Sequence record: PZ496581.1
Direction: 5' to 3' (one strand)
DNA length: 64,000 nucleotides
Source of the DNA: a phage
Below, piece after piece: positions 8,275 to 52,405 of the stretch. Position 1 is the stretch's first letter. Every line of letters starts with the position of its first letter. A program made the translations under genes and the position numbers. Below the pieces are notes generated by a model. The model saw only the letters and a program-made list of their open reading frames with translations. It was not told where the DNA came from and made no database searches.

Positions 8275-9843
8275 ATGACTACTATCAAAACTAAAGCTCA
8301 GCTCGTAGACAAATGGAAAGAACTGCTGGAAGGTGAAGGCCTGCCGGAAATCGCTAATAGCAAGCAGGCTATTATCGCTAAAATCTTCGAAAACCAGGAA
8401 AAAGATTTCGAAGTATCCCCTGAATATAAAGACGAGAAAATCGCTCAGGCATTTGGTTCTTTCTTGACCGAAGCTGAAATTGGTGGTGACCACGGTTATA
8501 ATGCTCAGAACATCGCAGCAGGTCAAACCTCTGGTGCAGTAACCCAGATTGGGCCAGCAGTTATGGGTATGGTTCGTCGTGCTATTCCTAATCTGATCGC
8601 TTTTGATATTTGTGGTGTTCAGCCTATGAACAGCCCTACCGGTCAGGTATTTGCTCTCCGTGCAGTATATGGTAAAGACCCTATCGCTGCTGGCGCTAAA
8701 GAAGCTTTCCATCCGATGTATGCTCCAGACGCGATGTTCTCTGGTCAGGGTGCTGCTAAGAAATTCCCAGCTCTGGCTGCTAGCACACAAACCACAGTAG
8801 GTGATATCTATACTCACTTCTTCCAGGAAACTGGTACTGTATATCTGCAAGCTTCTGTTCAAGTAACAATCGATGCTAGTGCGACTGATGCTGCTAAATT
8901 AGATGCCGAAGTTAAGAAACAAATGGAAGCTGGTGCACTGGTAGAAATCGCTGAAGGTATGGCTACTTCTATCGCTGAACTCCAGGAAGGTTTCAACGGT
9001 TCTACCGACAACCCGTGGAACGAAATGGGCTTCCGTATCGATAAACAAGTTATCGAAGCTAAATCTCGTCAGCTGAAAGCAGCTTACTCCATCGAATTGG
9101 CACAAGACCTCCGTGCAGTACACGGTATGGATGCTGATGCTGAACTGAGCGGTATTCTGGCTACAGAAATTATGCTAGAAATCAACCGTGAAGTTGTTGA
9201 TTGGATTAACTACTCAGCACAGGTCGGTAAATCTGGTATGACCCTGACTCCGGGTTCTAAAGCTGGTGTATTTGACTTCCAGGATCCGATTGATATCCGT
9301 GGTGCTCGTTGGGCCGGTGAAAGCTTTAAATCTCTGTTGTTCCAGATTGATAAAGAAGCAGTTGAAATTGCTCGTCAAACCGGTCGTGGTGAAGGTAACT
9401 TCATTATCGCTTCCCGTAACGTAGTTAACGTACTGGCTTCAGTTGATACTGGTATTTCTTACGCTGCACAGGGTCTGGCTTCTGGTTTTAATACCGACAC
9501 TACTAAGTCTGTATTTGCCGGTGTACTTGGTGGTAAATACCGCGTATACATCGACCAGTATGCTAAACAGGATTACTTCACCGTTGGTTACAAAGGCGCT
9601 AACGAAATGGACGCAGGTATTTACTATGCTCCTTACGTTGCACTTACCCCACTGCGTGGTTCCGATCCTAAGAACTTCCAGCCGGTAATGGGCTTTAAAA
9701 CTCGTTACGGTATCGGTGTTAACCCGTTTGCTGAAAGTTCCCTGCAGGCTCCAGGTGCTCGCATCCAGTCCGGTATGCCGTCTATCCTGAACAGCCTTGG
9801 TAAGAACGCTTACTTTAGACGCGTCTACGTTAAAGGAATTTAA
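8275..9843 (+). CDS. 23: Major capsid protein gp23
   Basis: 522 aa ORF; N-terminus and length match T4 gp23 (521 aa). Confidence 0.97.
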   Translation: MTTIKTKAQLVDKWKELLEGEGLPEIANSKQAIIAKIFENQEKDFEVSPEYKDEKIAQAFGSFLTEAEIGGDHGYNAQNIAAGQTSGAVTQIGPAVMGMVRRAIPNLIAFDICGVQPMNSPTGQVFALRAVYGKDPIAAGAKEAFHPMYAPDAMFSGQGAAKKFPALAASTQTTVGDIYTHFFQETGTVYLQASVQVTIDASATDAAKLDAEVKKQMEAGALVEIAEGMATSIAELQEGFNGSTDNPWNEMGFRIDKQVIEAKSRQLKAAYSIELAQDLRAVHGMDADAELSGILATEIMLEINREVVDWINYSAQVGKSGMTLTPGSKAGVFDFQDPIDIRGARWAGESFKSLLFQIDKEAVEIARQTGRGEGNFIIASRNVVNVLASVDTGISYAAQGLASGFNTDTTKSVFAGVLGGKYRVYIDQYAKQDYFTVGYKGANEMDAGIYYAPYVALTPLRGSDPKNFQPVMGFKTRYGIGVNPFAESSLQAPGARIQSGMPSILNSLGKNAYFRRVYVKGI

Positions 9844-9872
9844 TGCTTTAACGTTAAAATACATAACCTTAT

Positions 9873-9890
9873 GGGAGACTCCGGTCTCCC
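9873..9890 (+). terminator. Rho-independent terminator after gene 23
   Basis: gggagac-tccg-gtctccc hairpin followed by a T-rich tract, 30 nt after the gene 23 stop; convergent with the minus-strand HEG. Confidence 0.8.
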
Positions 9891-9900
9891 ATTCTTGTTT

Positions 9901-10560
9901 CTATAGCTTAAAACAATCATCGCGTTCATTAATCCAATTTCTTATAGTTTTTGCGGATACGTTAAAGAATTCGGCAGCGTAATCGTAGTGGTTAAATTCA
10001 TGACCTTTAATAGAAATATCCACAAATACAAATTTCTTACCTTTATTAGAATTCTTTCTAATTTTTGCTTTATGCTCTTCTGATAGTTTTCTACCTTTAA
10101 GATGAGAATCTCTATTTTTATAAAACTTTTTATTTGCTATAGATTTGTTTTCTCGATGTTCTTTAGATTCTTTAGAACCTAATTTCTTTTTAGATATTTT
10201 GGCCCGAACTTCTTCAGTCATACCAGCTTTTGTCTTTTCGGATAACATCTCACGATACCCAGGTTCCTGTAAAGCTACTATAACAGGATTACCCTTGCCG
10301 CCTAAGGCTGCATTATAAGTATCTGTTCTCATGACAAAAGCCTCGTCAACTAGTTCGGCTTCCTTAGCATACATCTCTTCAGATGTTTCGAAATTGAAAA
10401 GGATTTCCTTTTTAAAATTCTCTAAGCCGTATTTCTTTATGGATTTTACTATGTTAACCCCGGAACCCATATAAGAATCGTTAACATCTGTAGTGGCATG
10501 GGCTCCAACATAAATCTTGTTATTAATGAGATTGGTTATTTTGTAAATTAAATAATTCAT
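9901..10560 (-). CDS. GIY-YIG homing endonuclease, seg-type (segD-like position)
   Basis: 219 aa ORF with N-terminal GIY-YIG motifs (YLIYKITN..KIYVGAH.., NAALGGKGN) and basic C-terminal region; sits between genes 23 and 24 as segD does in T4. Confidence 0.85.
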   Translation of the reverse strand: MNYLIYKITNLINNKIYVGAHATTDVNDSYMGSGVNIVKSIKKYGLENFKKEILFNFETSEEMYAKEAELVDEAFVMRTDTYNAALGGKGNPVIVALQEPGYREMLSEKTKAGMTEEVRAKISKKKLGSKESKEHRENKSIANKKFYKNRDSHLKGRKLSEEHKAKIRKNSNKGKKFVFVDISIKGHEFNHYDYAAEFFNVSAKTIRNWINERDDCFKL

Positions 10561-10563
10561 ATT

Positions 10564-10830
10564 TTACGCTGCTTTGACACGACGGTTGATGATATCACGG
10601 AAGTCAATACGATTTTCTTGGATTTTCAGCCAGTTACCAGATTTGTCTTTGGTATGGGTAGAATATTCACCGTTCCACCAGAAGTCAGTTTCATAAGCCA
10701 GGGCTTCGTATTTCTTAACCAATGCATTAACTGCATTACCGTTAGGATTGGTACCAAATTTTTCTACCAGAGCTTTGATGTCTTTGTCAAGGTTAGAAAG
10801 TGTGGTACGGATAAAGTTTAATTTGTTCAT
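10564..10830 (-). CDS. Hypothetical small protein (88 aa), early gene
   Basis: ORF with SD GAGGAG 8 nt upstream of ATG (MNKLNF..); own early-promoter cassette upstream; its stop lies 3 nt before the HEG start. Confidence 0.6.
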   Translation of the reverse strand: MNKLNFIRTTLSNLDKDIKALVEKFGTNPNGNAVNALVKKYEALAYETDFWWNGEYSTHTKDKSGNWLKIQENRIDFRDIINRRVKAA

Positions 10831-10854
10831 TTTTAATCTCCTCATGTTTTGATA

Positions 10855-10890
10855 GGTCTATATTAACACGACGCTTTTTGTGTGTAAACC
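10855..10890 (-). promoter_or_regulatory. Early promoter cassette (GTTTAC-N17-TAATAT)
   Basis: Minus-strand GTTTAC with 17 nt spacer to TAATAT, then conserved leader ..AGACCTATCAAAACATGAGGAG. Confidence 0.65.
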
Positions 10891-10895
10891 ACTTT

Positions 10896-10903
10896 TATAA
10901 ATA
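10896..10903 (+). promoter_or_regulatory. Late promoter TATAAATA upstream of gene 24
   Basis: Exact TATAAATA about 30 nt upstream of the gene 24 ATG, followed by SD AAGGAAA. Confidence 0.7.
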
Positions 10904-10933
10904 AAATTATATTCTCAATAAGGAAAAAATGCA

Positions 10934-12214
10934 ATGAGTAAAATCCAAAAATTATTGCGTGAATCTACAACGTCTACTAGCAACTCAATTGGTCGCCCAA
11001 ATCTCGTTGCTTTGACTCGCGCTACGACTAAATTAATATATTCTGACATTGTAGCAACACAAAGAACTAATCAACCTGTTGCTGCTTTTTATGGTATCAA
11101 ATATCTTAACCCAGATAACGAATTCACATTTAAAACTGGTGCTACTTATGCTGGCGAAGTTGGATATGTAGACCGAGAAAAAATTACTGAACTCACAGAA
11201 GAATCAAAAGTCACACTAAATAAAGGCGATTTTTTCAAATATAATAATATCGTCTATAAAGTGTTAGAAGATGCACCATTTGCAGATATTCAAGAAAGTG
11301 ATCTAGAATTAGCTCTTCAGATTGCAGTCGTTCATTTAAAGGTACGGTTATTTTCAGATGCAGCAGTAACAAGCAAATTTGAAAGCTCTGGTAGCGAAAT
11401 TTCTGATGCAAGATTCCAGATTAATAAATGGCAAACTTCTGTCAAATCTCGTAAACTTAAAACTGGCCTCACAGTTGAATTAGCGCAAGATTTGGAAGCG
11501 AATGGATTTGATGCCCCTAACTTCTTAGAAGATTTGCTTGCAACTGAAATGGCAGATGAAATTAATAAAGATATTCTTCAGTCTTTAATTACTGTATCGA
11601 AACGTTATAAAGTTACTGGAATTACTGACACCGGATTTATTGACTTGAGCTATGCATCCGCTCCAGAAGCAGGTCGTTCATTATATCGAATGGTGTGTGA
11701 AATGGTATCACACATTCAAAAAGAGACAACTTATACTGCAACGTTTTGTGTAGCCTCAGCTCGTGCAGCTGCTATTCTTGCTGCTTCTGGTTGGTTAAAA
11801 CATAAGCCGGAAGATGACAAGTATCTTTCACAAAATGCTTATGGATTCTTGGCAAATGGATTACCTCTTTACTGCGATACCAACAGTCCGTTAGATTATG
11901 TTGTTGTGGGTGTTGTAGAAAATATCGGCGAAAAAGAAATTGTAGGGTCCATCTTTTATGCTCCATACACTGAAGGAGTAGATTTAGATGACCCGGAACA
12001 TGTTGGTGCATTTAAAGTTGTAGTTGATCCAGAAAGCTTGCAACCGTCTATTGGATTATTGGTTAGATATGCTTTATCAGCAAATCCTTACACAGTAGCA
12101 AAAGATGAAAAAGAAGCGAGAATAATTGATGGCGGGGACATGGATAAAATGGCAGGACGTTCAGACTTGTCTGTTTTACTCGGTGTTAAATTGCCTAAAA
12201 TTATTATAGATTAA
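10934..12214 (+). CDS. 24: Capsid vertex protein gp24
   Basis: 426 aa ORF; gp23-paralogous fold region; T4 gp24 is 427 aa. Confidence 0.93.
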   Translation: MSKIQKLLRESTTSTSNSIGRPNLVALTRATTKLIYSDIVATQRTNQPVAAFYGIKYLNPDNEFTFKTGATYAGEVGYVDREKITELTEESKVTLNKGDFFKYNNIVYKVLEDAPFADIQESDLELALQIAVVHLKVRLFSDAAVTSKFESSGSEISDARFQINKWQTSVKSRKLKTGLTVELAQDLEANGFDAPNFLEDLLATEMADEINKDILQSLITVSKRYKVTGITDTGFIDLSYASAPEAGRSLYRMVCEMVSHIQKETTYTATFCVASARAAAILAASGWLKHKPEDDKYLSQNAYGFLANGLPLYCDTNSPLDYVVVGVVENIGEKEIVGSIFYAPYTEGVDLDDPEHVGAFKVVVDPESLQPSIGLLVRYALSANPYTVAKDEKEARIIDGGDMDKMAGRSDLSVLLGVKLPKIIID

Positions 12215-12249
12215 TAAAAAAAAAAGGGACCTTACGGTCCCTTTTTTTC
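12215..12249. terminator. Bidirectional rho-independent terminator
   Basis: A-run, then gggacc-ttac-ggtccc hairpin, then T7 run; lies between convergent gene 24 (+) and rnlB (-). Confidence 0.85.
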
Positions 12250-12250
12250 G

Positions 12251-13249
12251 TTATGATACTAATTCAATCCATGCAGGACGCAGAACATCTTGCACCATTC
12301 GGACTAATTCTTTCTTAACAAGATTCGGATTATCAGATGATGTTAATACAATACCTTCACGAGAAGTTTCTTCCAGAATATCTTGAACAGTCAATCCCAT
12401 CACTTTGCCAAAATCTTTTGGCGTTACAGTCCCAATCTTAGAAATCACATTATTAACACGATTTAATGTAACATAACAAGCTAGAACATCAAGCAAGTTT
12501 TTGTCAATTTCGGTTAATGGAACCTGAGTTTTAATAGGCTTATCAGACTTTTTCTTTTCACTGAATTTAGAGTTCTTGCACTTAATAGCTACACGAGTAC
12601 CGTTTGGCAGCCATTTAGGGAAACAAGGCTTCAGAACATAACCTTCTGCCGTATTATCGCCAATAACATTAGCATCAAATACACAATTATTTGCTTCTAC
12701 AAGGTCTTCTGACGCAGTAGCATTATAAGCGGCTAAGACAGAATCAAGGTCGTTTGGAATCATGATAAGAGCATCAAATGTGCCACGTCCAAGCATTGGT
12801 GCCATTTTAAAACCGAATTCATTACAGAAATCTTGCATTTCGTAATCGGTCAAATACGTATTATCACCACTTTCTGTATTGATAAGGATATCGAACACAT
12901 AAAAATCTTTTTCACCGTAGTCAACACCTTTCTGGATTCCACCACCAGCGAATTCACCAAATACTTGATATGATACGGCTCGAGCTGTGTACATGAATTC
13001 CTGAACGGCTTTAATAGCTTTATCATACTTCTTGAGTACGATTTCATAACCATAAAAATCTTCTGCTGGAAGAATAGGGCCTGTGCGCTTGGCGCATGTG
13101 ACGTTGTCACGTTCAATTATTAACGAGAAGTTAGTCCCATGGATTTTCTCACGTGCTACCCAAACACCAGTAGTCAAACCATTAGTGTAGAGTTTTTCAA
13201 TAAACTTAGAGTTGTAGTGGTTTTCAAGACTGCTGTATTTCTTAAACAT
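12251..13249 (-). CDS. rnlB: RNA ligase 2 (Rnl2)
   Basis: 332 aa ORF, near-identical N-terminus to T4 Rnl2 ([20 protein letters not shown]), ligase motif I KIHGTN. Confidence 0.95.
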
Positions 13250-13368
13250 AAATCACCATTATAAATAATAATATCAAAATAATTAGCAGAGACTCTGTCT
13301 CTGTCCGGATGTTTAATTTGAATGGATAGAACCTAGATTCATTATACCATCAAAAAATGTAAAGCATA

Positions 13369-13620
13369 CTAGAACTTGATTTCTATCCAGTGCCCATCAC
13401 GCTGGTCGTGATTAATTTTATACTGAAAGCCATTATCACGTAACCACTGCCCGATTTGCTCGGTGATAGTTAAATCATTCTTTGACGGATAGTATGTAAA
13501 TTGTGTCTGGCCTTTGTCAGCGGCTTTCTCTGCCATCACAGAGAAGTTAGTAATAAAATCACTCAACAAATTAGCTTTAGTGGCCAGTGCCCTTTCTCTT
13601 AATTCCTGTGCAAAACTCAT
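13369..13620 (-). CDS. Hypothetical protein (24.2-like position)
   Basis: 83 aa ORF, overlaps upstream gene by 4 nt; positional equivalent of T4 24.2. Confidence 0.6.
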   Translation of the reverse strand: MSFAQELRERALATKANLLSDFITNFSVMAEKAADKGQTQFTYYPSKNDLTITEQIGQWLRDNGFQYKINHDQRDGHWIEIKF

Positions 13621-13817
13621 TTCTTCACCTTTTTGTTAATCAAACGTTTACGGTATACAACTTTTTCTTTTGCTTTAAACTTTGACCGAGCTGTCTCGGC
13701 TTTAGTCCATAGTAATCCAACTTCTTTAGGTTGTAAACCAATTTTTTGAGCAATTTCTACGAATGAAAATCCCGCCTCATGTAATGTATAAACTTCAACT
13801 TCAGCTCTCATAATCAA
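13617..13817 (-). CDS. Hypothetical small basic protein (24.3-like position)
   Basis: 66 aa ORF with basic C-terminus; positional equivalent of T4 24.3. Confidence 0.6.
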   Translation of the reverse strand: MIMRAEVEVYTLHEAGFSFVEIAQKIGLQPKEVGLLWTKAETARSKFKAKEKVVYRKRLINKKVKK

Positions 13818-13892
13818 TCCCGTATTATTTGGTTTGTGCCATTATATACATCAATCTCAAGTTGTGTTTTGTATGCTTTAAAAACGAAGAAA

Positions 13893-13906
13893 GGGGCCGA
13901 AGCCCC
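13893..13906 (-). terminator. UUCG-tetraloop terminator after hoc
   Basis: Minus strand reads GGGGC-UUCG-GCCCC followed by a U-rich tract, 7 nt after the hoc stop. Confidence 0.7.
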
Positions 13907-13912
13907 TTACGA

Positions 13913-15326
13913 TTATGGATATGTATAGATGATACCAGTTTCCAAAGCAGTTTTATGGATGATGTATCCATTACGTGATTCTTGAACATCAACTTCCGGA
14001 TAGTCTTTCATCATCTTCTGAAGAGTGTAACGATGCAGGTAGTATTTACTATCTGGATCTTCAGTTTTCCAATCTTTACCTTCTTCAGTCATTTTTTGGA
14101 TTTCATCCATAACCCACCATCCGCACCAGATGTAAGCTGAAGTACGATGTGGAAGAGGATGAACATAAGGTAGTTCACCTTCTGGTTCAATTGGAGTCCG
14201 TTCAGCAATAACAACTTCAGCGGTTGAACTAATTGTCTTTGAAGTATAATTATCTTTAGTTAATACTGCTTCAACTTTAATTGTATGAGTACCCGCTGAG
14301 GAGGTATCAATACTATAAGTATTAGTAGAATTACTTTCTGCTACGTTGTCTTTCTTCCAAGAATACACAATATTAGTATCACCAGGAGCACCAGTAACAG
14401 ATGCTGTTAAAGTTGCAGTTCCACCAACAGTAGTATTAACTGATGGCGGAGATAAAGAAATGGTGGCACTATTAAATGTCGCATTATTAGTTACTACTGT
14501 TGCTTCTGCTGAAATTTCTTTTGTAACATAATTTGTTGCAGAAACAGATGCGGTGCATTTAAGAGTTTTACTTCCGACTTCGGTCGGAGTGAATTTATAC
14601 GTAGCAGAAGTTGCATCCGGAATATTACTGTCATCCATTGACCATTGGAATGTTATAGTAGCACCTGAAGGTGCACTAGAGACATTTGCAGTTAAAGTAA
14701 TAGGAACACCAAAGACTGTAGTCGGAGACTCGGGTGTAATTTTTTAGCGTCGAAGAATTAGCCTTTTTATTTACAGTCAAAGAAACCGCTGATGATTCTA
14801 CTGTTTTATCAACGTAATCAGTTGCAGTCACTGTGACAGAGCAAGTTATAGACTTAGTTCCTTCAGTTGTTGGTGTATTCAAAGGTTGATTGCTTTTGAC
14901 CGTCAACAGCGACCCCGTCAACTTTCCATGTATAATCAATAGCAGCACCAGTAGGTTGATTGCTTACATTAGCAGTGAATGTTGTTGCTGTTCCAATTTC
15001 TACTGCCGCAGGAGAAGCCGGAGTAACAGTGATAGTGGAATTATTTTCTTTCTTATTAACAGTGATAGTTGTTGATGCTTCAGCTATTTCCGGATCTCCT
15101 GCGGAAAGTGTATTAGTTGCAACCACTTTAATTTTTTTGTTCCTGCTGGAGAAGCAAGAGTATAATCCATTGTAGCAGCCGTAGAGCCCTGTGTTATATC
15201 ATCTACAGTCCAGACGTATGTAATAGTACCGTCTGGAGTTTGACCACTGGGAGTAGCAGTAAACTGCTGAGTCTGATCTATAACTCCAGTAGGTGTTTTA
15301 GGAGTTATATCAACTGTAAAAGCCAT
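13913..15326 (-). pseudogene. hoc: hoc (outer capsid decoration protein) interrupted by three frameshifts; apparent four Ig-like domains
   Basis: Four consecutive minus-strand ORF pieces (15084-15326, 14863-15126, 14676-14948, 13913-14638) each align to T4 Hoc; C-terminal capsid-binding domain ..PEGELPYVHPLPHR..IIYTYP is near-identical to T4; frame breaks at T7 run 15132-15138, at about 14878-14886 and at T6 run 14740-14745. Confidence 0.85.
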
Positions 15327-15335
15327 AACTTATCC

Positions 15336-16004
15336 TTATTTTAATGTTACGAAAGAAGAATTACGAGTTTCACGAATTAGAACTGATCCATCGCGATTAA
15401 TATAATAAATTAAGCTAAATAATGTTTGGTGAGCAGAAGCATGCACAAAACTAGTTGGGCGAGATTTCCAATCTGGGGTTTCGGCTATCCATTGATAAAT
15501 CCACCAAGGAACAGTAACATATCCTGGGCCTTTGCCTAATTTAATGAGTGTAGGACTAAAATTTTCAGGCAGAACAAATTTTACTTCTTTATTTACCTCT
15601 GGTTCAGGCTCTTTTTCAGATTCAACAACCTGAGTAATTGCTTCTTCGAATTTATCATGGTCGAATTCTTTTTCTTGTTCGACAACTTCTAATACTTCAA
15701 CTTGTTCTGTTGGAGAATCAAACAACAGAATAGCTTCTTCTTTAACTTCTTCGTTGGTGAAATTAACACCGTCCACATCATCTGCGGCAGTAATTAAATC
15801 GGTGATAGATAATCCATCGGTTTCAGGTAATGGTTCATCAGCCAGTGCGTTAAGAGCTTCTTCGATATCAATAACAATATTATCAAATGATTTTGTTTTC
15901 TTAACACTAATGCCAAATTGTCCCGCATATTCAAACAGTTTAGCTTTGGCTTCCTTTTTATCAGAAAGAGCACGTAACTCTTCAATATAGTCTTTATCGA
16001 TCAT
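15336..16004 (-). CDS. inh: Inh, inhibitor of prohead protease gp21
   Basis: 222 aa acidic ORF immediately upstream of hoc on the same strand; T4 Inh is about 226 aa; SD GAGGA. Confidence 0.8.
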   Translation of the reverse strand: MIDKDYIEELRALSDKKEAKAKLFEYAGQFGISVKKTKSFDNIVIDIEEALNALADEPLPETDGLSITDLITAADDVDGVNFTNEEVKEEAILLFDSPTEQVEVLEVVEQEKEFDHDKFEEAITQVVESEKEPEPEVNKEVKFVLPENFSPTLIKLGKGPGYVTVPWWIYQWIAETPDWKSRPTSFVHASAHQTLFSLIYYINRDGSVLIRETRNSSFVTLK

Positions 16005-16017
16005 GGTATTTCCTCAT

Positions 16018-16025
16018 TATAAATA
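16018..16025 (+). promoter_or_regulatory. Late promoter TATAAATA upstream of the seg-type endonuclease gene and uvsW
   Basis: Exact TATAAATA about 28 nt upstream of the likely HEG start. Confidence 0.6.
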
Positions 16026-16053
16026 TAACTATATTTATTACATGGAAAAGAGT

Positions 16054-16785
16054 ATGTATCACTTTGTTTATGAGACCGTAAATTTAATCAATGGTAAAAA
16101 GTACATTGGCAAACATTCTACAGAAAATTTAAATGATTCGTATCTAGGGTCAGGTGTTGCCTTAAATCGCGCTATCAAAAAATACGGAGAAGAATCATTT
16201 AAACGTTCAATAATTAAACAATTTGAAACTTCCGCTGAAGCTTTAGAATACGAAGCTCAGTTAGTAACAGAGGATTTGGTCAAATCTAACGAGTATTATA
16301 ATATGCGCCAAGGCGGTGAAGGTGGAAGGTATAAGTACACCGAAGCTGATAAGATTAAAATGTCTAATAGTGCTAAAGAACGAATAAAGAGGCTTGGTCA
16401 TAATCTTTTAGGAAAACACAGATCGGAAGAAACAAAAAGAAAACTATCTGAAACAAATAAACGTCGATACTCTGAAGACCCAACATGCCACGGGCGGTAT
16501 GGTACAGGAAAGCCAAAGATTGATAAAATTAAAGGTCCTAAAAATCCTACAACTCTAAATAAAATTTGTGTTAACAAAGGTAAAGAAAACAGATTTATAT
16601 CAGCCGAGGACCCGATGCCTGAAGGATTTGTAAAAGGAATGGTCCAACTTAATAGAAAATCTAGAAAGGGTTGTGAAGTAAAACCTACGACCACCGGCAG
16701 AATATGGGTAAATAACGGGGCTATAAATAAATTAGTAAATCCGTTATCCATCCCAGATGGATATGTTAAAGGCCGTTTAAGGTAA
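16054..16785 (+). CDS. GIY-YIG homing endonuclease, seg-type (segE-like position)
   Basis: GIY-YIG motifs (MYHFVYETVN..KKYIGKHS.., NMRQGGEGG) plus basic NUMOD-like C-terminal region; listed ORF starts at 16003 but that lies upstream of the late promoter, so ATG 16054 (or 16042) is more likely; paralogous to the 9901-10560 gene. Confidence 0.85.
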   Translation: MYHFVYETVNLINGKKYIGKHSTENLNDSYLGSGVALNRAIKKYGEESFKRSIIKQFETSAEALEYEAQLVTEDLVKSNEYYNMRQGGEGGRYKYTEADKIKMSNSAKERIKRLGHNLLGKHRSEETKRKLSETNKRRYSEDPTCHGRYGTGKPKIDKIKGPKNPTTLNKICVNKGKENRFISAEDPMPEGFVKGMVQLNRKSRKGCEVKPTTTGRIWVNNGAINKLVNPLSIPDGYVKGRLR

Positions 16786-16790
16786 TTATT

Positions 16791-18305
16791 ATGACAGATA
16801 TTAAAGTACATTTTCATGATTTTAGCCATGTAAGAATTGAATGCGACGAAAGCGTGTTCTATGAATTACGCGACTTTTTTAGCTTTGAAGCCGATGGGTA
16901 CAAATTCAACCCGCGTTACAAATATGGGAACTGGGATGGTAGAATTCGACTTTTAGATTACAATCGTTTGTTACCATATGGACTTGTAGGACAAATAAAA
17001 AAGTTCTGTAACAATATGAGTTATTCTGTATGGATTGACCCTAAAATCTTTGAGACTGAAGACCTTACCAGAGAAGATTTTGACGCATGGCTTTCTAAAC
17101 AAGAAATTTATTCGGGCAACGCCAAAATCGAACCACATTGGTATCAAAAAGATGCAGTATATGAAGGACTAGTTAATCGTCGTCGAATTTTAAACCTTCC
17201 GACATCAGCAGGTAAATCACTAATCCAAGCACTTTTAGCTCGGTATTATCTAGAGAACTATGAAGGCAAAATTCTCATTATTGTCCCTACAACAGCATTG
17301 ACAACCCAGATGGCTAATGATTTTGTTGATTATCGCTTGTTTAGTCATTCGATGATTAAGAAAATTGGCGGTGGTGCTGATAAAGCAGACAAATCTAAAA
17401 ACGACGCTCCAATTATTGTTGGCACATGGCAAACGGTAGTTAAGCAGCCTAAAGAATGGTTCTCTCAGTTCGGTATGATGATGAACGATGAATGCCACTT
17501 AGCAACAGGCAAAAGTATTTCTTCAATCATCGCAGGATTAAATAATTGTATGTTTAAATTCGGTTTATCTGGCTCATTAAGAGACGGAAAAGCCAATGTA
17601 ATGCAGTACGTAGGTATGTTCGGCGAAATCTTCCGTCCTGTTAGCACGTCTAAATTAATGGAAGATGGACAGGTAACTGAGCTTAAGATTAATAGTATTT
17701 TCCTTCGTTATCCGGACGAATTCACTGTTAAATTAAAAGGTAAAACATACCAAGAAGAAGTTAAAATTATTACCGGACTAAAACGTCGTACAAAGTGGAT
17801 TGCTCAACTTTCAGTCAAATTGGCTAAGAAAGACGAGAACGCCTTTGTAATGTTTAAACACGTTACACACGGTAAAGAAATATTTGAAGCTATTAAAGAG
17901 CTTGGATACGAAAAAGTTTATTACGTATCAGGTGAAGTTGATACCGAAACACGTAACGCGCTTAAAGTCATGGCAGAAAATGGTAAAGGCATTATTATTG
18001 TCGCATCATATGGAGTATTCTCTACTGGTATTTCAGTCAAGAATCTTCATCATGTTATTTTTGCCCATGGTGTTAAATCAAAAATTATCGTACTTCAAAC
18101 CGTAGGTCGTGTGCTTCGTAAGCATGGTTCTAAAGCTGTTGCTACAGTTTGGGATCTCATAGATGACGCAGGTGTAAAACCTAAATCATTAAATACTAAA
18201 AAGAAGTATACTCATCTTAATTACTTGTTAAAACACGGTATTGATCGTATCCAACGTTACGCTGATGAGAAATTTAACTATGTAATGAAAACAATTAATT
18301 TATAA
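16791..18305 (+). CDS. uvsW: UvsW RNA-DNA and DNA helicase
   Basis: 504 aa ORF with SF2 helicase motifs (Walker A PTSAGKS, DECH box); T4 UvsW is about 502 aa. Confidence 0.95.
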   Translation: MTDIKVHFHDFSHVRIECDESVFYELRDFFSFEADGYKFNPRYKYGNWDGRIRLLDYNRLLPYGLVGQIKKFCNNMSYSVWIDPKIFETEDLTREDFDAWLSKQEIYSGNAKIEPHWYQKDAVYEGLVNRRRILNLPTSAGKSLIQALLARYYLENYEGKILIIVPTTALTTQMANDFVDYRLFSHSMIKKIGGGADKADKSKNDAPIIVGTWQTVVKQPKEWFSQFGMMMNDECHLATGKSISSIIAGLNNCMFKFGLSGSLRDGKANVMQYVGMFGEIFRPVSTSKLMEDGQVTELKINSIFLRYPDEFTVKLKGKTYQEEVKIITGLKRRTKWIAQLSVKLAKKDENAFVMFKHVTHGKEIFEAIKELGYEKVYYVSGEVDTETRNALKVMAENGKGIIIVASYGVFSTGISVKNLHHVIFAHGVKSKIIVLQTVGRVLRKHGSKAVATVWDLIDDAGVKPKSLNTKKKYTHLNYLLKHGIDRIQRYADEKFNYVMKTINL

Positions 18306-42907: not shown

Positions 42908-43318
42908 CTACTTTTTCTTATGTTGGATATTCCAAGGCGGGTTGAACTTTTTGATAAAAAGCGGTTCTTCAAGGTCCATTGTTGCGATGGTCATTGAACC
43001 AAGTTCGTTGGTGACTGAAAGGTCAAAACATTGGCGGGCCCAGAATTCAACCTTTTTGCCTTGCATTAAGGCATCCAAAATCATAAGTGATTTTCTTGAA
43101 TCTGAAGTCTGGTCTTTTCGATTTATGGCTGTTCGATAATAGTTAATGCGTTTCTTTAAATTCTTGGTTTTACCAATATACACAAGTTCGTCATCTATAG
43201 CAATAGCGTATATGACATTTTTCTTATTAGGGACATCAACTGTTTTAATTGTTGCATCTTCTAATAGCTCCAATTCTGTATATTTAATAAAGGAATATTC
43301 GGCGGCAATATCTTTCAT
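42908..43318 (-). CDS. denA: Endonuclease II (DenA)
   Basis: 136 aa ORF with GIY-YIG-like core (VIYAIAIDDELVYIGKTKNLKKRI.YY); T4 DenA is 136 aa; preceded by gggac-cgaa-gtccc hairpin at 43327-43340. Confidence 0.9.
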   Translation of the reverse strand: MKDIAAEYSFIKYTELELLEDATIKTVDVPNKKNVIYAIAIDDELVYIGKTKNLKKRINYYRTAINRKDQTSDSRKSLMILDALMQGKKVEFWARQCFDLSVTNELGSMTIATMDLEEPLFIKKFNPPWNIQHKKK

Positions 43319-43344: not shown

Positions 43345-44523
43345 TTAGAAATATTTTTTGTATGAATTGATTACATTTTGGTCTACATCATTATCAATTT
43401 GTGCGACAAGATAAGAACTGATTTCAACTTCCTGAGGAGCTGCTTGAACTAAATCAGAGTTCAGATATTCACGAATCCAAGGATACGGATGCTTGGTCGG
43501 AGCATCAGTGATTGGGCATGGCAAACCACACTGTTTCATACGAGACACAGTCAAGTAATCAACAAAAGCACACATACTCTGTGTATTGATACCTGGGCAT
43601 GTACCGTCTTTAAAGAGGTGTGCAGCCCATTCCTTCTCTTGACTATTTACTTCCATAAAAATGTCAACTGCTTCTTGTTCACATTCTTTAGCAATTTGAA
43701 CCCACTCATCGCCATCAGTACCAGATTGAAGTTGACGGATGATGTACTGAGTACCCTTGAGGTGGAGTTGTTCGTCACGAGCAATGAACTTCATAATCTT
43801 TGCATTACCTTCCATAATTTCCATATTTTTATGGAAGTTGAAAGTACATGCAAATGATACGTAAAAACGAATAGCTTCTAAGGCGTTGATAACATGCAAA
43901 CAGAGGTAAAGAGATTTCATTAGCTCACGCTTCCAATATGTCTCATGCTCAATAGCATCTTCAATAACGTCTTCGTCTGCATTAATTTCTTTTTGGTATT
44001 CGATATCAGCTTTAGCATTTTCCCAATAACGAGTTTTAACCAAGACATCATCGTAATAGCGACCAATAGATTCAGCGCGTTTCATGATTGCTTCGTCTAA
44101 TACAATCTCATCAAATACCTTAGATGGGTCCGTATAAAGATTTCGCATAATATGAGTATACGAACGAGAGTGAATAGTTTCACTGAATGTCCATGTTGCA
44201 ACCCACGTATCTAATGAAGGGTCAGAAATCAGTGCCATAAGTACCGCAGATGGGGCCCTGCCTTGGATAGAATCTAATAATGATTGATACTTAAGATTGT
44301 TTGTAAAGATGTCCTGTTGGAACTGAGGAAGCTTATTGAACTGCGCAGAGTCCAACATCAAGTTTACCTCTTCGGGACGCCAGAAAAATGACAAGGATTT
44401 TTCTATAAGTTCTTCAAAAACTTTATGACGCTGAATATCATACCGTGCGAGGCCAAGACAAGAACCAAAGAACATCGGTTCATTCAAAACATCGACTTGT
44501 TGTGTGTTAAAAACTGTACTCAT
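43345..44523 (-). CDS. nrdB: Ribonucleotide reductase small subunit NrdB (intronless)
   Basis: 392 aa contiguous ORF with the diiron/tyrosyl-radical family fold; no intron interruption. Confidence 0.93.
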   Translation of the reverse strand: MSTVFNTQQVDVLNEPMFFGSCLGLARYDIQRHKVFEELIEKSLSFFWRPEEVNLMLDSAQFNKLPQFQQDIFTNNLKYQSLLDSIQGRAPSAVLMALISDPSLDTWVATWTFSETIHSRSYTHIMRNLYTDPSKVFDEIVLDEAIMKRAESIGRYYDDVLVKTRYWENAKADIEYQKEINADEDVIEDAIEHETYWKRELMKSLYLCLHVINALEAIRFYVSFACTFNFHKNMEIMEGNAKIMKFIARDEQLHLKGTQYIIRQLQSGTDGDEWVQIAKECEQEAVDIFMEVNSQEKEWAAHLFKDGTCPGINTQSMCAFVDYLTVSRMKQCGLPCPITDAPTKHPYPWIREYLNSDLVQAAPQEVEISSYLVAQIDNDVDQNVINSYKKYF

Positions 44524-44578
44524 TATATTTTCTCACTTAGTTATTAACTCATCCATGAGTAAATTATAATCAAAAGTC

Positions 44579-46834
44579 TTAAAGCTTACAAGCAGAACAA
44601 TCTTCAGCTTTAGGTGTTTCTAATTCATAGTCATCTGTACCTGACCCATCACGAGTGTTATGATAGTAGAGATTTTTTCCGCCAAAGTACCAGAAGTAAA
44701 GCAGATCGTCAAGCATTACTGACATTGGCACTTTACCTTTCTCAAACACTGCAGGGTCATAGTAAGTATTAGCAGAAGCAGATTGGCACACCCATTTCAA
44801 CATGATAGCAACTTGGGTCAAATAAGGTTTATTACCTTTCTTAGCAAGTTTCCACGCATAGTCGTAAAGACTCATGTTATGTTCTATATTAGGAACAACC
44901 TGACGGAAGTTGCCTTCTTTAGATTCTTTAATACTCACTGGACCACGCGGCGGTTCAATCCCGTTTGTAGAGTTTGATACTTGACTGCTTGACTCACAAG
45001 GCATGAGTGCAGACAACGTTGAGTTACGAATTCCATGTTCTTTGAGTTCAGCTCGAAGTTCTTCCCAATCACATACGTAGTTCGGGGCTGCGATTTGGTC
45101 AATCTTTTTATTGTACCAGTCGATAGGTAATTCGCCTCTAGACCATTTAGTGTCTGAATAATACTCGCAACATCCTTTTTCTTTGGCGAGTTTGATTGAT
45201 GCTTTGATAAGGCCATATTGCAATCTCTCAAACAATTCATGAGTCAAATCGTTAGCGTCTTCATATGAAGCAAAGTTAGAAGCTAACCATGCAGCATAGT
45301 TCGTAACACCAACACCAAGATTACGACGCTTTTTAGCTTTTAAAGCTTCTGGAACCGGATAATCTTGATAGTCTAACAGGTTATCAAGTGCACGTACTTG
45401 TACTTCAGCAAGTTCATTAATTTTATCTTGGTCTTGCCAATCAAATTTATCCAATACAAAAGCAGATAATGTGCATAAACCAATTTCAGCATCAGGACCA
45501 TTCACATCATTAGTTGGAATAGCGATTTCACAACATAAGTTACTCTGACGAATTGGAGCTTTTTCACGAATAAATGGAGTGTAGTTATTCGTGTTATCAA
45601 CAAACTGTGGATAAATTCGAGCGGTGCCAGAACGTTCAGTCATGAACAATTCAAAGAGTTCTAGTGCTTTGATTCTTTTCTTTCTGATTGTCGGGTCTTT
45701 TTCAGCTTTCTCATAAAGCTCACGGAATTTATCTTGATCTTCAAAGAACGAGTAGTATAGTTCGCCTGACATTTCATGAGGGCTAAATAAAGTAATATAA
45801 TCATTTTTACCAAGACGTTCCATCATAAGGTCATTAATCTGAATTCCGTAGTCCATATGTCGAATACGGTTTTCATCCACGCCTTTGTTATTTTTCAGAA
45901 CTAATAGGTTCTCTACTTCTAAGTGCCACATCGGATAATACGCTGTAGCAGCACCACCACGAATACCACCTTGAGAACAAGATTTTACTGCAGTTTGGAA
46001 ATGTTTCCAGAATGGAATAACACCCGTATGTCGAACTTCACCCATACCGATCTTAGAACCTTCTGCACGAAGCATACCAACGTTGATACCGATACCAGCT
46101 CGTTTAGAAATATATTCAATAATTGATGCTGAAGTTTTGTTAATAGATTTTAACGAATCACCGGCTTCAATAACTACACAACTAGAGAACTGGCGAGTCG
46201 GAGTACGAGCACCTGCCATAATTGGAGTAGGCAATGAAACTTGATGAGTAGAAACGGCGTCATAAAAACGAATAATATGTTTCAAACGGTCATGAGTTTC
46301 GTCTTGGTGTAAGGCCATGCCAATAGCCATGATAGCAAACTGTGGAGTTTCATAAATCTTCCCAGTTGTTTTATCTTTAACTAGATATTTTTCTTTAAGC
46401 TGCATAGCACCAGCATAAGTCAGGTCAAAGTCTCGTTCATGTTTAATCTGTGAATCGAGATAAATGATTTCTTCTGCTGAATATTGAGACAACAGCTCAG
46501 GGTCATATTTGCCTTCATTAACACAGTAAGAAATATGGTCGATAAAAGCAGGCGGTTCAAACTGCCCATATACATCTTTACGAAGTGCAAACATTAGCCC
46601 TTTGGCGGCGACATACTGATAATCAGGTTCTTCGACAGAAATCGAGTTAGCTGCAACTTTAATACAAATCTTCTGAATATCTTTGGTGCTCATACCATCG
46701 ACAAGATGGGTCTTAATTTCTTCGTACAATTCATATGGGTCAATTTGTGTTCCTTCACATTGCCAAGTTAAGACTTGAATAATTTTCTGTGCATCAAAAT
46801 TTTGGGATACACCACTGCTCTTAGTTACTTGCAT
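44579..46834 (-). CDS. nrdA: Ribonucleotide reductase large subunit NrdA
   Basis: 751 aa ORF with class Ia RNR active-site region (..NLCCEI..) and C-terminal Cys pair; T4 NrdA is 754 aa. Confidence 0.95.
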   Translation of the reverse strand: MQVTKSSGVSQNFDAQKIIQVLTWQCEGTQIDPYELYEEIKTHLVDGMSTKDIQKICIKVAANSISVEEPDYQYVAAKGLMFALRKDVYGQFEPPAFIDHISYCVNEGKYDPELLSQYSAEEIIYLDSQIKHERDFDLTYAGAMQLKEKYLVKDKTTGKIYETPQFAIMAIGMALHQDETHDRLKHIIRFYDAVSTHQVSLPTPIMAGARTPTRQFSSCVVIEAGDSLKSINKTSASIIEYISKRAGIGINVGMLRAEGSKIGMGEVRHTGVIPFWKHFQTAVKSCSQGGIRGGAATAYYPMWHLEVENLLVLKNNKGVDENRIRHMDYGIQINDLMMERLGKNDYITLFSPHEMSGELYYSFFEDQDKFRELYEKAEKDPTIRKKRIKALELFELFMTERSGTARIYPQFVDNTNNYTPFIREKAPIRQSNLCCEIAIPTNDVNGPDAEIGLCTLSAFVLDKFDWQDQDKINELAEVQVRALDNLLDYQDYPVPEALKAKKRRNLGVGVTNYAAWLASNFASYEDANDLTHELFERLQYGLIKASIKLAKEKGCCEYYSDTKWSRGELPIDWYNKKIDQIAAPNYVCDWEELRAELKEHGIRNSTLSALMPCESSSQVSNSTNGIEPPRGPVSIKESKEGNFRQVVPNIEHNMSLYDYAWKLAKKGNKPYLTQVAIMLKWVCQSASANTYYDPAVFEKGKVPMSVMLDDLLYFWYFGGKNLYYHNTRDGSGTDDYELETPKAEDCSACKL

Positions 46835-47176: not shown

Positions 47177-47488
47177 TTATACCGCCATTTTAGCTTTGAT
47201 AGTTGGATGAGATTCGTAATTTTTAAGAACGAAATCAGAATGTGTCATCGTTCCAGTAACCCAGTCCATTTGGATTTTTGTAGGCCAATTCTCAAAATTA
47301 CTAGGCCAATTAATTTCAAGAGAACATAATTCTTTAGGTTCACGACGAAGAACTTCTTTGCATTGTTCTACATGATTGCTGTAGATATGCGTGTTGCCGC
47401 CTGAGAACACTAAATCACCTGGGATAAGGTTACACATCTTCGCTACAATATGCGTCAAGGCAGCGTACGAGGCAATGTTGAACGGCAG
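47177..47488 (-). CDS. td: Thymidylate synthase, exon 2
   Basis: Encodes LPFNIASYAALTHIVAKMCNLIPGDL.FSGGNTHIY..; 312 nt as in T4 td exon 2; begins immediately after the intron terminal G. Confidence 0.9.
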   Translation of the reverse strand: MPFNIASYAALTHIVAKMCNLIPGDLVFSGGNTHIYSNHVEQCKEVLRREPKELCSLEINWPSNFENWPTKIQMDWVTGTMTHSDFVLKNYESHPTIKAKMAV

Positions 47489-48504
47489 CATTATGTTCAG
47501 ATAAGGTCGTTAATCTTATCCCGGAATTATATCCAGCTGCATGTCACCATGCAGAGCAGACTATATCTCCAACTTGTTAAAGCAAGTTGTCTATCGTTTC
47601 GAGTCACTTGACCCTACTCCCTAAAGGGATAGTCGTTAGGCATTTATGTAGAACCAATTCCACTTATCAGATTTTACACGGTAAGTAACTAATCCTGATG
47701 AAATTTCAAAATGTCTAGCCGCATCGGCTGCACATTCAAAAATAATCCCATCGCATGAAATCTTTTTGATGTTAGCTGGCTTTTTGCCTTTCATCTTTTC
47801 AGATAGTTTAGTTTTAGTTTTTTCTGAATGTTTGTGATTAAAGAACGGGTTATTTTCACCTGAACGTTTTCGGCACTTTCCACAAGTATCGGCCGAAGAT
47901 GGTATGCGAACACCGCATTTACAAAACTTGTGGTTTTCTGGATTCCATCGGCCATTTTTACTTCCGTGTTTACCATAAAGAGCTTTCCGACCATCAGGAC
48001 CAAGCTTAAGCATCTTAGCTTTAACAGTTTCAGCTCGTTTCTTAGCAATTTCTTCTTTTAATGGATGATTTGAAAGCACATCGCCAAAAGACGCATCAGC
48101 AATATTATATCCATTAATTTTAGAATTTAGCTCTTTAATCCAAAAATTTTCTCGTTCAATAATCAAATCTTTCTCATATGGAATTTCTTCCAGTACAGAG
48201 CATTCAAAAACATTACCATGTTTATTAAAAGACCTTTGAAATTTTATAGAAGAGTGAACACCGTTTTCAAGGTCTTTAAAATGTCTCTTCCATCTTTTCT
48301 CAAAATCTTTAGCACTTCCAACATACACTTTACCGTTTAAAGTGTTTTTAATCTGATAAATTCCGCTTTTCATAAACACCTCTTTTTATATAGAAGTATT
48401 TATTAAAGGGTAGTCCTACAATTTAGCACGGGATTGTCTACTAGAGAGGTCCCCCGTTTAGATAGATTACAAGTATAAGTCACCTTATACCTAGGCCTAA
48501 ATTA
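47489..48504 (-). mobile_element. Group I self-splicing intron in td, carrying the I-TevI homing endonuclease gene
   Basis: 1016 nt between td exons; 5' end (minus strand) TAATTTAGGCCTAGGTATAAGGTGACTTATACTTGTAATCTATCTAAACGGGGGACCTCTCTAGTAGACAATCCCGTGCTAAAT closely matches the remembered T4 td intron; exon 1 ends ..CTTAGGT and intron ends ..ATG as in T4. Confidence 0.92.
47636..48373 (-). CDS. I-TevI GIY-YIG intron homing endonuclease
   Basis: 245 aa from ATG 48373 (MKSGIYQIKNTLN.KVYVGSAKDFEKRWKRHFKDLE..) near-identical to T4 I-TevI including zinc finger and C-terminal DNA-binding domain; the listed ORF start at 48379 is a GTG. Confidence 0.95.
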   Translation of the reverse strand: MKSGIYQIKNTLNGKVYVGSAKDFEKRWKRHFKDLENGVHSSIKFQRSFNKHGNVFECSVLEEIPYEKDLIIERENFWIKELNSKINGYNIADASFGDVLSNHPLKEEIAKKRAETVKAKMLKLGPDGRKALYGKHGSKNGRWNPENHKFCKCGVRIPSSADTCGKCRKRSGENNPFFNHKHSEKTKTKLSEKMKGKKPANIKKISCDGIIFECAADAARHFEISSGLVTYRVKSDKWNWFYINA

Positions 48505-49878
<1,374 letters not shown>

Positions 49879-50696: not shown

Positions 50697-51614
50697 TTAT
50701 AGACCAGCTAACAGGTCATCGAGGTCGCCATCATCAGAGGATGAGGTAGAGCTCATGAAGTCATCTTCAGTTTTTGCAGAACTAAAGGCTTCCATGTCTT
50801 TATCAAAATCGTCAAGGTCAGAAGCAACTTTATCTGCAACAGAAGCTGCTGCGGCTGCTGCACCACCAAGAGCGGCAGTACCAAGAGCGGCAGTACCAAG
50901 AACCTTAGCGAAAGATTCATTTAATTTTTCAAAGGATTTGAACTGGTCTTTAGCCGTCAAAGTAGTAAGGTCTACCATCTGGTCATATAGTTCTTTCTGG
51001 AATGCTTCGTCATTAATACGAGGAATTTCAGATTGACCCAAGAATTTAGATTCGTCATAGTTGCTAAAACCTGAAACCTGCTTAGCTTTCAGAACGAAGT
51101 TAGCACCTTCAAACGGACAAGTAACATCAACTGGAGTTTCACCCATTTCGGTATCAACAGCAATCATTGCATTGATTTTGTCCCAAATCTTTTTACCGAA
51201 ACGATATTTAAATACTTTACCTTCGTTATCTGGAGCTTGAGGGTCTTTAACAACCAGAATATTAGCCCAATAAGAAGTTTTACGTTTCAGTTGAGAATAT
51301 TCATTTTTGTTGGTATTGTACAGGTCATTTTTACTAATGTACTGACATACAGGACAAGAGTCATAATCACCATGTGTAGAAGAGCAATTTTCAATATACC
51401 ATTTACCATTTTTCTTGAAACCGTGGTTAACAAGAATTGCAAATGGTAGTGCATCATCAGTTTTTGCTGGCAAGAAACGAATTACCGCTTGACCATTACC
51501 GGATGCATCTAGCTTCAGCTTCCATTCGCCTTTATCTTCTGAAGAGAAACCTTTGTTACCATTCAGTTTAGCCATTTGAGCAGCGAGGTCAGCAGTAGAT
51601 TTACGTTTAAACAT
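50697..51614 (-). CDS. 32: Single-stranded DNA-binding protein gp32
   Basis: 305 aa ORF near-identical to T4 gp32 ([35 protein letters not shown]..; zinc site C..H..C..C); acidic C-terminus. Confidence 0.96.
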
Positions 51615-51751: not shown

Positions 51752-52405
51752 TTAATACTTACATGATTTGATTGTTTCTATGAACAATTTCTTAGCAGCA
51801 TTTCCATCGATTTGAAGTATTTTTCGATATGCCTTTAATTTGGTAGAATAATTTTGCCAGACTAAATTATCGGTGAGTTCGTCGTGCTTATCTATAATAT
51901 TCAAAAACGAGTCCAACAATAAGAAAGTTTCAAATGAAATTATATTGCTTTGTAGCAATTTAAATATGTAGCTCGACTGAACGTTGTTATTATAATCAAA
52001 TATCTCTTGAAGCGCACTAACTTCAACTTTCTTACTGAAATAGTAGATGTTACGTACGTCTTCAGCAAACGTCTCTTTAGCTTGTTTTAGTCGTCCAATA
52101 TATTCCCTATAGAAAACTAATGCATCAGCGTCTGATATCTCACCAATCCATGCGTCTTGGTTAGCAACTAAGTTGCTTATGAATATCAAGGTGAGTTCCT
52201 TCAATTTATATTTCTCTGATAGTTTTTCAAAGAAATATTTATCTCGGCGTTTTTGATACGCATTATCCGAAACACGCATGCACCAGTTATATTTGATTAC
52301 GTCATACCGACCACCAAAGTGGTTTTTGCACATCAAGTATAGTTTATATACTGATTTACCGTTAATATAACGTTCTCCGTCAGGAGGCATACGTATTTTA
52401 ATCAT
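51752..52405 (-). CDS. 59: Helicase loader gp59
   Basis: 217 aa ORF near-identical to T4 gp59 (MIK.RMP..GERYI.GKSVYKLYLM.K.H..G.YDVIKYNWCMRVSD.AYQKRRDKYFF.KLSEKYKLKEL..). Confidence 0.95.
   Translation of the reverse strand: MIKIRMPPDGERYINGKSVYKLYLMCKNHFGGRYDVIKYNWCMRVSDNAYQKRRDKYFFEKLSEKYKLKELTLIFISNLVANQDAWIGEISDADALVFYREYIGRLKQAKETFAEDVRNIYYFSKKVEVSALQEIFDYNNNVQSSYIFKLLQSNIISFETFLLLDSFLNIIDKHDELTDNLVWQNYSTKLKAYRKILQIDGNAAKKLFIETIKSCKY

Follow-up and report, generated by a model that had tools for sequence, protein, structure and literature searches.

Phage T4 carries two free-standing genes for homing endonucleases of the Seg family within the gene order 23-segD(-)-24-rnlB-24.2-24.3-hoc-inh-segE(+)-uvsW, and Edgell, Gibb and Belfort (2010, PMC2988022), in their table of nucleases, place segD at 23/24 and segE at inh/uvsW, with uvsW as the segE target. 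The same review names segE as one of the nuclease genes in which a promoter for the next gene downstream is embedded, finds no segD-specific promoter in T4 and notes no nuclease-specific early promoters. According to PMC2330249 (citing Kadyrov 1997), T4 SegE cuts the hoc.1(inh)-uvsW region of the segE-less phages RB30 and RB52 and homes at nearly 100% with co-conversion of its flanks; nuclease-initiated co-conversion of flanking markers is presented as established for T4 SegE, SegF and SegG (PMC2988022, PMC2330249). Here we examine the corresponding locus of phage sequence record PZ496581.1, of which a stretch of 64,000 nucleotides (nt) was analysed in full and is called the window below. Two open reading frames (ORFs) are at issue, both candidate homing endonuclease genes (HEGs): HEG1 (9901-10560, minus strand) and HEG2 (ending at 16785, plus strand). 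Both are real and ordinary features, namely divergent orthologs of T4 segD and segE at their canonical positions.

The source phage is a T4-like coliphage of the genus Mosigvirus. Escherichia phage NRG-P0074 (Mosigvirus; Straboviridae, Tevenvirinae) matches it at 98.5% identity over 9800-16900, a region also matched by hundreds of T4-like phages. The original prediction, made from the DNA letters alone, treated the two nuclease genes as something beyond T4. T4 itself carries segD (23/24, opposite strand) and segE (inh/uvsW), and the arrangement found here is the T4 complement at both sites, with no departure from it. Taken as a whole, we consider it highly probable that HEG1 and HEG2 are Mosigvirus orthologs of segD and segE at these positions that behave as independent selfish genes.

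Identity and integrity of the two nuclease genes

Each protein was scored against all seven T4 Seg proteins. HEG1 is 58% identical to SegD over its full length (247 bits, next T4 Seg 98 bits), and HEG2 is 48.6% identical to SegE (216 bits, next T4 Seg 94 bits), so that the alignment called for by the original prediction places HEG1 with SegD and HEG2 with SegE. The map agrees: HEG1 occupies the T4 segD slot (23/24) on the same strand, and HEG2 the T4 segE slot (inh/uvsW) with the same insertion point. Relatives of HEG1 in GenBank are already labelled ‘SegD homing endonuclease’, and HEG1 matches PHROG 314 ‘homing endonuclease’ at 5e-54. HEG2 exceeds the Pfam cut-offs for both PF19835 SegE_GIY-YIG (30.3 vs 25 bits) and PF01541 (25.8 vs 22.6). 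Score and synteny together argue that HEG1 and HEG2 are free-standing GIY-YIG nuclease genes orthologous to T4 segD and segE.

Compared with each other, HEG1 and HEG2 share 38% identity over ∼160 amino acids (aa) (E=2e-27, 92 bits). The similarity is limited to the N-terminal catalytic module and a NUMOD3-like linker, and the extreme C-termini are unalignable. The two genes are therefore paralogous, as the original prediction has it, only in being old members of one family (92 bits against 247 and 216). The C-terminal halves are basic (isoelectric points of 9.8 and 10.3, 24-25% K+R, for HEG1 and HEG2, respectively), and the seg-type assignment, with its N-terminal GIY-YIG motif and basic C-terminus, is supported by alignment, by profile matches (PHROG for HEG1, Pfam for HEG2) and by charge.

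Both reading frames are intact and full length. Alignment identified 23 positions that are invariant across T4 SegA-E, all of which are retained in HEG1 and HEG2. These include Y6 (the GIY Tyr), Y17-x-G19 (YIG), H21, Y30-GSG, K43-YG, E67, Y82-N83 and GG, with H21, Y30-GSG and K43-YG being Seg-specific invariants. A Seg profile searched against the PDB found the I-TevI catalytic domain (1MK0/1LN0) as its best match, a weak one (E about 0.1), and phmmer searches with HEG1 and HEG2 singly against PDB sequences returned chance-level matches only. Between the YIG motif and the next helix, the catalytic module of the Seg proteins has 8-9 residues fewer than that of I-TevI. Relative to the copy in Dhakavirus IME341, HEG1 shows a ratio of non-synonymous to synonymous substitution (dN/dS) of 0.15, and the catalytic domain is 100% identical at the amino-acid level across the two genera, which points to purifying selection on HEG1.

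The features of the locus are as follows.

8275-9843, plus strand: gene 23
9871-9892, both strands: stem-loop terminator (9-bp stem, 5 GC pairs, T-run on the plus strand)
9901-10560, minus strand: HEG1, segD-like, 219 aa
9905-10915: putative Dhakavirus-type cassette of ∼1 kb, made up of HEG1, the 88-aa allele and some of the promoter region, in place of a resident allele of 270 nt
10564-10830, minus strand: 88-aa ORF, phrog_6003
10860-10888, minus strand: predicted early-type sigma-70 promoter of the 88-aa gene and HEG1
10896-10903, plus strand: predicted gene 24 late promoter, TATAAATA
10934-12214, plus strand: gene 24
12251-13249, minus strand: rnlB
to 15326, minus strand: 24.2, 24.3 and fragmented hoc (hoc itself 13913-15326)
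15336-16004, minus strand: inh
16018-16025, plus strand: predicted late promoter TATAAATA upstream of HEG2
16046-16782, plus strand: inserted segment that defines HEG2 against nuclease-less Mosigviruses, 737 nt
16054-16785, plus strand: HEG2, segE-like, 243 aa (247 aa from ATG 16042)
16722-16729, plus strand: exact TATAAATA within the HEG2 3' end, candidate replacement uvsW late promoter
16791-18305, plus strand: uvsW
16791-16935, plus strand: uvsW 5' tract co-segregating with HEG2

The segE-like gene at the inh-uvsW junction

The original prediction ran HEG2 from 16003 to 16785. The gene and its end stand, but the start is placed at 16054 or 16042: the T4 SegE start (MYHFVYET...) aligns to ATG 16054, and relatives are annotated from 16042. 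ATG 16003 was rejected, as the extension contains TATAAATA and overlaps the divergent inh start codon.

The insertion itself can be read to the base. Nuclease-less Mosigviruses (O157 typing phage 6, hereafter TP6, and AV116) carry ...TATAAATATAACTATATTTATTACATGG/TAATTTGACATGACTGAC, in which the last ATG is the uvsW start and the slash marks the point at which 737 nt are inserted; the empty site can alternatively be written ...TATTTATTACATGG/TAATTTGACATGACTGAC, the boundary being ambiguous by the 2-nt repeat GG. The filled site reads ...ACATGG[AAAAGAG...TTTAAGG]TAATTATTATGACAGAT, against an inh-uvsW empty site in TP6 and AV116 of ...ACATGGTAATTTGACATGACTGAC.... The left junction equals that of T4 segE base for base, after ...TATAAATA..TATTTATTAC(A/T)(T/C)GG. 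In the inh-uvsW spacer of HEG2-less Mosigviruses, the uvsW ATG is also closely preceded by a mini-ORF of three codons, ATG GTA ATT TGA. Once the site is filled, HEG2 takes its 16042 start codon from the ATGG of this mini-ORF and its stop codon from the TAA next to it.

HEG2 does sit behind the late promoter motif noted in the original prediction (TATAAATA, 16018-16025), although this promoter is not its own. The same element is present in the HEG2-less TP6 and AV116, where uvsW follows directly, and upstream of T4 segE; since it is kept in nuclease-less relatives, it is best regarded as the resident uvsW late promoter. An exact second copy lies within the 3' end of HEG2 (16722-16729), 62 nt before the uvsW ATG, where T4 segE has AATAAATA at the homologous codons. 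In the whole window, TATAAATA occurs at 20 sites vs 7.6 expected. The embedded copy fits the embedded-promoter pattern listed for segE.

HEG2 is linked to a diverged flanking allele. Over the first ∼117-145 nt of uvsW, 20-29 substitutions separate HEG2-bearing genomes (the window, NRG-P0074 and ESh27) from HEG2-less ones, affecting 15-16 codons synonymously and 2-5 non-synonymously. Among the compared genomes, no HEG2-linked differences were found past ∼16935 or, in the other direction, on the inh side as far as the insertion point. In the phage collection, all 10 records with this uvsW allele at ≥98.8% identity bear HEG2, and the best HEG2-less record reaches 94.8%. The HEG2-less alleles at 94.8% are those of OLB35 (MH992122) and JM10 (PP400777), other HEG2-less phages being graded between 90 and 82%, a gradation suggestive of partial tracts left by earlier conversion or by loss of the nuclease. 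By analogy with the behaviour of T4 SegE, the uvsW tract would be a co-conversion or target-immunity tract.

A mechanism can be proposed on these grounds. HEG2 would be transcribed late from the promoter of its host gene uvsW, since it is inserted between that promoter and the uvsW start codon, and the TATAAATA inside its 3' end could restore late expression of uvsW. In a mixed infection, if the enzyme acts like T4 SegE, it would cut the nuclease-less inh/uvsW junction or the uvsW 5' end, and recombinational repair would transfer HEG2 to the recipient along with the neighbouring ∼120-145 nt of uvsW. Carriers may in turn be shielded by their split site and their diverged uvsW tract.

The segD-like gene and its Dhakavirus-type cassette

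HEG1 lies downstream of an 88-aa ORF that begins at ATG 10830, with GAGGAG 7 nt before the ATG, and ends in a stop codon at 10564-10566, 3 nt ahead of the HEG1 ATG (10560). HEG1 has no Shine-Dalgarno sequence of its own, and the 88-aa product matches phrog_6003 at 1.2e-48. Upstream, a candidate early-type promoter (10888-10860, minus strand) consists of TTTACA-17 nt-TAATAT with TG at -15/-14. The 88-aa early ORF, its 3-nt gap to HEG1 and an early-type promoter upstream are as originally predicted. While the spacer sequence varies, the window, TP6, JS10 and T4 all retain the hexamers, their 17-nt spacing and the TG, and the call rests on this conservation in four phage lineages together with position. 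The predicted gene 24 late promoter TATAAATA stands back to back with the 88-aa promoter in a compact divergent control region (10860-10903), where it overlaps the A/T-rich upstream region of the latter (-35 at 10883-10888, minus strand). At the other end, the terminator at 9871-9892 is common to gene 23 (plus strand) and the HEG1 transcript (minus strand); folded as the minus strand, it reaches -15.4 kcal/mol (z = -3.3). RNA folding at the HEG1 and HEG2 start codons gave nothing beyond shuffled controls (z = 0.47 and -0.05, respectively), and there is no evidence at either gene for the hairpins that sequester the ribosome-binding site of some T4 nuclease genes.

Where HEG1 is missing, Mosigviruses have only a 270-nt gene in this slot; its product, though belonging to the same phrog_6003, is 32% identical to the 88-aa protein of the window. 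The window allele is instead nearly that of the nuclease-less Dhakavirus JS10 (87/88 aa identical; 93.5% nt identity over 10574-10926), and Dhakavirus IME341 has the same 88-aa allele followed by a nuclease gene 91% identical to HEG1. Within the Mosigvirus genomes compared in detail (the window, NRG-P0074 and AV116), the Dhakavirus-type 88-aa allele accompanies HEG1. The JS10 empty site reads ...GTTAAGATTGCATAG/TACAGAAACAAGAATGGGAG, where TACAGAAACAAGAATGGGAG is the terminator and filled sites hold the nuclease gene at the slash; for the 23-24 fragments of JS10 and TP6, the empty site is given as ...GTTAAGATTGCATAGTACAGAAACAAG.... The final 18 nt of the 88-aa gene carry 8 changes in filled sites, vs 6.5% divergence upstream. 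Similarity to HEG1-less Mosigviruses ends at 9904, where the cassette meets resident sequence right beside the terminator, and returns at 10838-10883; from ∼10920, ∼15 nt before the gene 24 ATG, the sequence is of Mosigvirus type again. Most simply, the resident allele would have been replaced by a ∼1-kb cassette of Dhakavirus type, comprising the 88-aa allele and the segD-like gene.

HEG1 would accordingly have entered Mosigvirus from a Dhakavirus-type donor, together with the 88-aa allele of that donor. It is presumably co-transcribed with the 88-aa early gene from the early-type promoter and, as it lacks its own Shine-Dalgarno sequence, may be translated by coupling or re-initiation.

Independence of the two genes and the block between them

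Comparison of the locus across T4-like relatives, proposed with the original prediction, showed both genes to be polymorphic for presence at exact sites, with empty and filled junctions resolved to the base for each. All four states occur (HEG1/HEG2): +/+ in NRG-P0074, -/+ in ESh27, +/- in AV116 and -/- in TP6. In the phage collection, HEG1 was found at ≥95% identity in 33 records and HEG2 at ≥98.8% in 11, and the two occur together only in NRG-P0074, BEU50 and KAW3E185. The nuclease-linked tracts stay out of the 24-hoc-inh block: that of HEG2 runs outward into uvsW, and the HEG1-linked cassette ends before the gene 24 ATG. This distribution argues that HEG1 and HEG2 are independent selfish genes rather than a pair acting on the block between them.

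That hoc is disrupted, as originally predicted, was confirmed by comparison with TP6 and ESh27, whose Hoc is intact at 471 aa. Three frameshifting indels were found: A8->A7 near 15139, the loss of one AT near 14879 and A5->A6 near 14745. NRG-P0074, the closest relative, has A9 at the first of these runs. The indels have the character of replication slippage or sequencing errors rather than of conversion scars, and the broken hoc would reflect either a local sequencing error or the genuine decay of a dispensable gene whose A-run is prone to slippage. Hoc type does not correlate with nuclease status in five genomes, AV116 (HEG1+/HEG2-) having a different hoc.

The genes neighbouring the broken hoc are all intact. 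Positions 15200-15350 of the window (∼130 nt of the hoc 5' end and the end of inh) are only 75-77% identical to NRG-P0074, TP6 and ESh27, which are otherwise the closest, and 92% identical to AV116. The remaining hoc of AV116 is of a different, shorter type, which places a recombination joint inside the window hoc.

Alternative explanations

Several points count against the account given above or qualify it. HEG1 falls under the Pfam cut-offs (PF19835, 20 vs 25 bits; PF01541, 16.2 vs 22.6), and no Seg protein has a residue that aligns with the canonical GIY-YIG Arg (R27 of I-TevI). The promoters were called from consensus matches backed by conservation, and a sigma-70 pattern scan gave 16 sites vs 23.8 expected from shuffles, i.e., no enrichment; cross-lineage conservation is for this reason the better promoter evidence. 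The spread of HEG1 could be ordinary recombination that is not nuclease-driven, and site-specific cleavage and biased inheritance by either enzyme are putative. Moreover, the title of a 2018 report by Sokolov et al. denies homing by T4 SegD, which makes homing by HEG1 uncertain. The SegD site is reportedly identical in segD-plus and segD-minus phages. The denial of homing by T4 SegD lends some weight to the idea that one or both genes are inactive relics or are kept for a non-homing role, HEG1 as an enzyme that, like T4 SegD, has ceased to mobilise its own gene, and HEG2 only as a carrier of the uvsW promoter. The absence of a ribosome-binding site before HEG1 is in keeping with it, and the TATAAATA embedded in HEG2 fits the argument that an embedded promoter favours retention (Edgell et al., PMC2988022). 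We nevertheless regard this as rather unlikely. Both frames are intact with all family-invariant residues, and the dN/dS of HEG1 is low. In two genera, moreover, presence or absence varies at exact sites and goes with closely linked flanking alleles, the pattern left by homing that is active or was so until recently. The original prediction named loss of the catalytic Tyr, Arg or Glu as a sign of degeneration: Tyr and Glu are retained, and the Arg is uninformative on decay because no T4 Seg has an aligned one, the enzymes shown to be active included.

Independent orthologs of segD and segE are also to be preferred over the role that the original prediction gave them, in which the bracketing pair drives gene conversion or marker exclusion across the 24-rnlB-hoc-inh block and so explains its variability and the broken hoc. 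Flanking co-conversion is established for T4 SegE, SegF and SegG, and the block is indeed mosaic among relatives, as seen in the AV116 hoc type and in the hoc 5' end of the window against its closest relatives. Yet the linked tracts are short and lie outside the block, with a clean inh side and a gene 24 of resident type; in the five genomes compared, hoc type varies without regard to the nucleases, and the hoc lesions are those of slippage; and the genes assort independently, with both present in only 3 database records. Taken together, this makes a concerted action very improbable. A recent duplication within this genome, for which the shared N-terminal 160 aa could be cited, is hardly credible: reciprocal comparison with the T4 Segs rules it out, because the best T4 match of each gene is a separate gene in the corresponding map slot, which it resembles far more than the two resemble each other, the C-terminal DNA-binding regions are unrelated and the two occur independently in relatives. 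A further proposal is advanced tentatively, as a possibility and no stronger. Here, the segD-like gene and the Dhakavirus-type 88-aa allele would form a two-gene mobile unit that crosses genera, with a homing site spanning the 3' end of the resident 88-aa gene, immunity through allele replacement and early expression by translational coupling. Were this true, it could account for the spread of segD-type genes despite the reported loss of homing by T4 SegD itself. It would also provide a Seg nuclease driven by an early promoter, in contrast to the T4 review.

Other mobile elements in the window

The absence of segG and of an nrdB intron was correctly predicted from the start: gene 32 (50697-51614) and gene 59 (ending at 51752) are separated by ∼140 nt, and nrdB is one uninterrupted 392-aa ORF. 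Similarly, mobE is absent, with ∼55 nt between nrdA and nrdB (44523-44579). The td gene, by comparison with its Pfam profile, is split (47177-49053, minus strand) into ORFs 48502-49053 (profile positions 1-175) and 47177-47491 (176-266). Between the two halves lies an I-TevI ortholog (47636-48379, minus strand) with the GIY-YIG, I-TevI zinc-finger and I-TevI DNA-binding domains of Pfam. An Rfam scan of the td region at the gathering threshold returned no group I intron model; the split gene and its nuclease indicate a T4-type td group I intron. Downstream of nrdB, denA (42908-43318, minus strand, 136 aa) is GIY-YIG-like by Pfam, and three GIY-YIG nuclease genes are found in the window besides it.

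Comparison with known systems

Beyond correct annotation, the significance of the locus is small, as HEG1 and HEG2 are counterparts of T4 segD and segE whose relatives in GenBank are already called ‘SegD’ or ‘homing endonuclease’. The base-resolved empty and filled sites are ready substrates for mapping the poorly defined SegD-type target. The uvsW tract offers a clean natural co-conversion or immunity tract, perfectly linked to a rare segE allele, and the HEG1 cassette provides evidence for a segD-type gene moving from Dhakavirus to Mosigvirus together with the allele of a neighbouring gene.

Among the described systems, T4 SegE is the counterpart of HEG2. The two share the intergenic slot, the orientation, the exact insertion point after ...TATTTATTAC(A/T)(T/C)GG with TATAAATA upstream, the N-terminus MYHFVYET.NLINGKKYIGKHS and the C-terminal PEGFVKG...NNGAINKL...PDG(F/Y)(I/V)KGRL. 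They differ in sequence (identity ∼49%), in an extra basic, NUMOD3-like linker of ∼50 aa in HEG2, which is without the 12-aa C-terminal tail of T4, and in the 3' end, where HEG2 has the exact TATAAATA and T4 has AATAAATA; the HEG2 allele is also rare (11 records). T4 SegD stands in the same relation to HEG1, with the same slot, antisense to 23 and 24, 58% identity and the same full-length architecture, in which the GIY-YIG module is followed by a NUMOD3-like linker and, at the C-terminus, by the helix-turn-helix-like motif KTIRNWIN. Both genes have a homologous TTTACA-17-TA.TAT element upstream; that of T4, TTTACA-17 nt-TATTAT with TG at -15/-14, is directly upstream of segD and in the same position as the Mosigvirus/Dhakavirus 88-aa promoter. 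Unlike T4, which has none, the window carries the 88-aa gene (phrog_6003) between promoter and nuclease gene, with its 3-nt gap, and T4 thus appears to have lost this gene and kept the promoter.

The intronless homing of T4 SegF and SegG, with its co-conversion and localised marker exclusion, offers a parallel of process, in that free-standing genes carry adjacent host sequence as they spread, to which the uvsW 5' tract (HEG2) and the 88-aa allele (HEG1) would correspond. SegF and SegG are other members of the family at other loci, and segG is absent from the window. I-TevI of the td intron belongs to the same catalytic fold family and gave the Seg profile its best match in the PDB. The Seg genes differ from it in lying outside introns and in their shorter module, in which R27 has no aligned counterpart.

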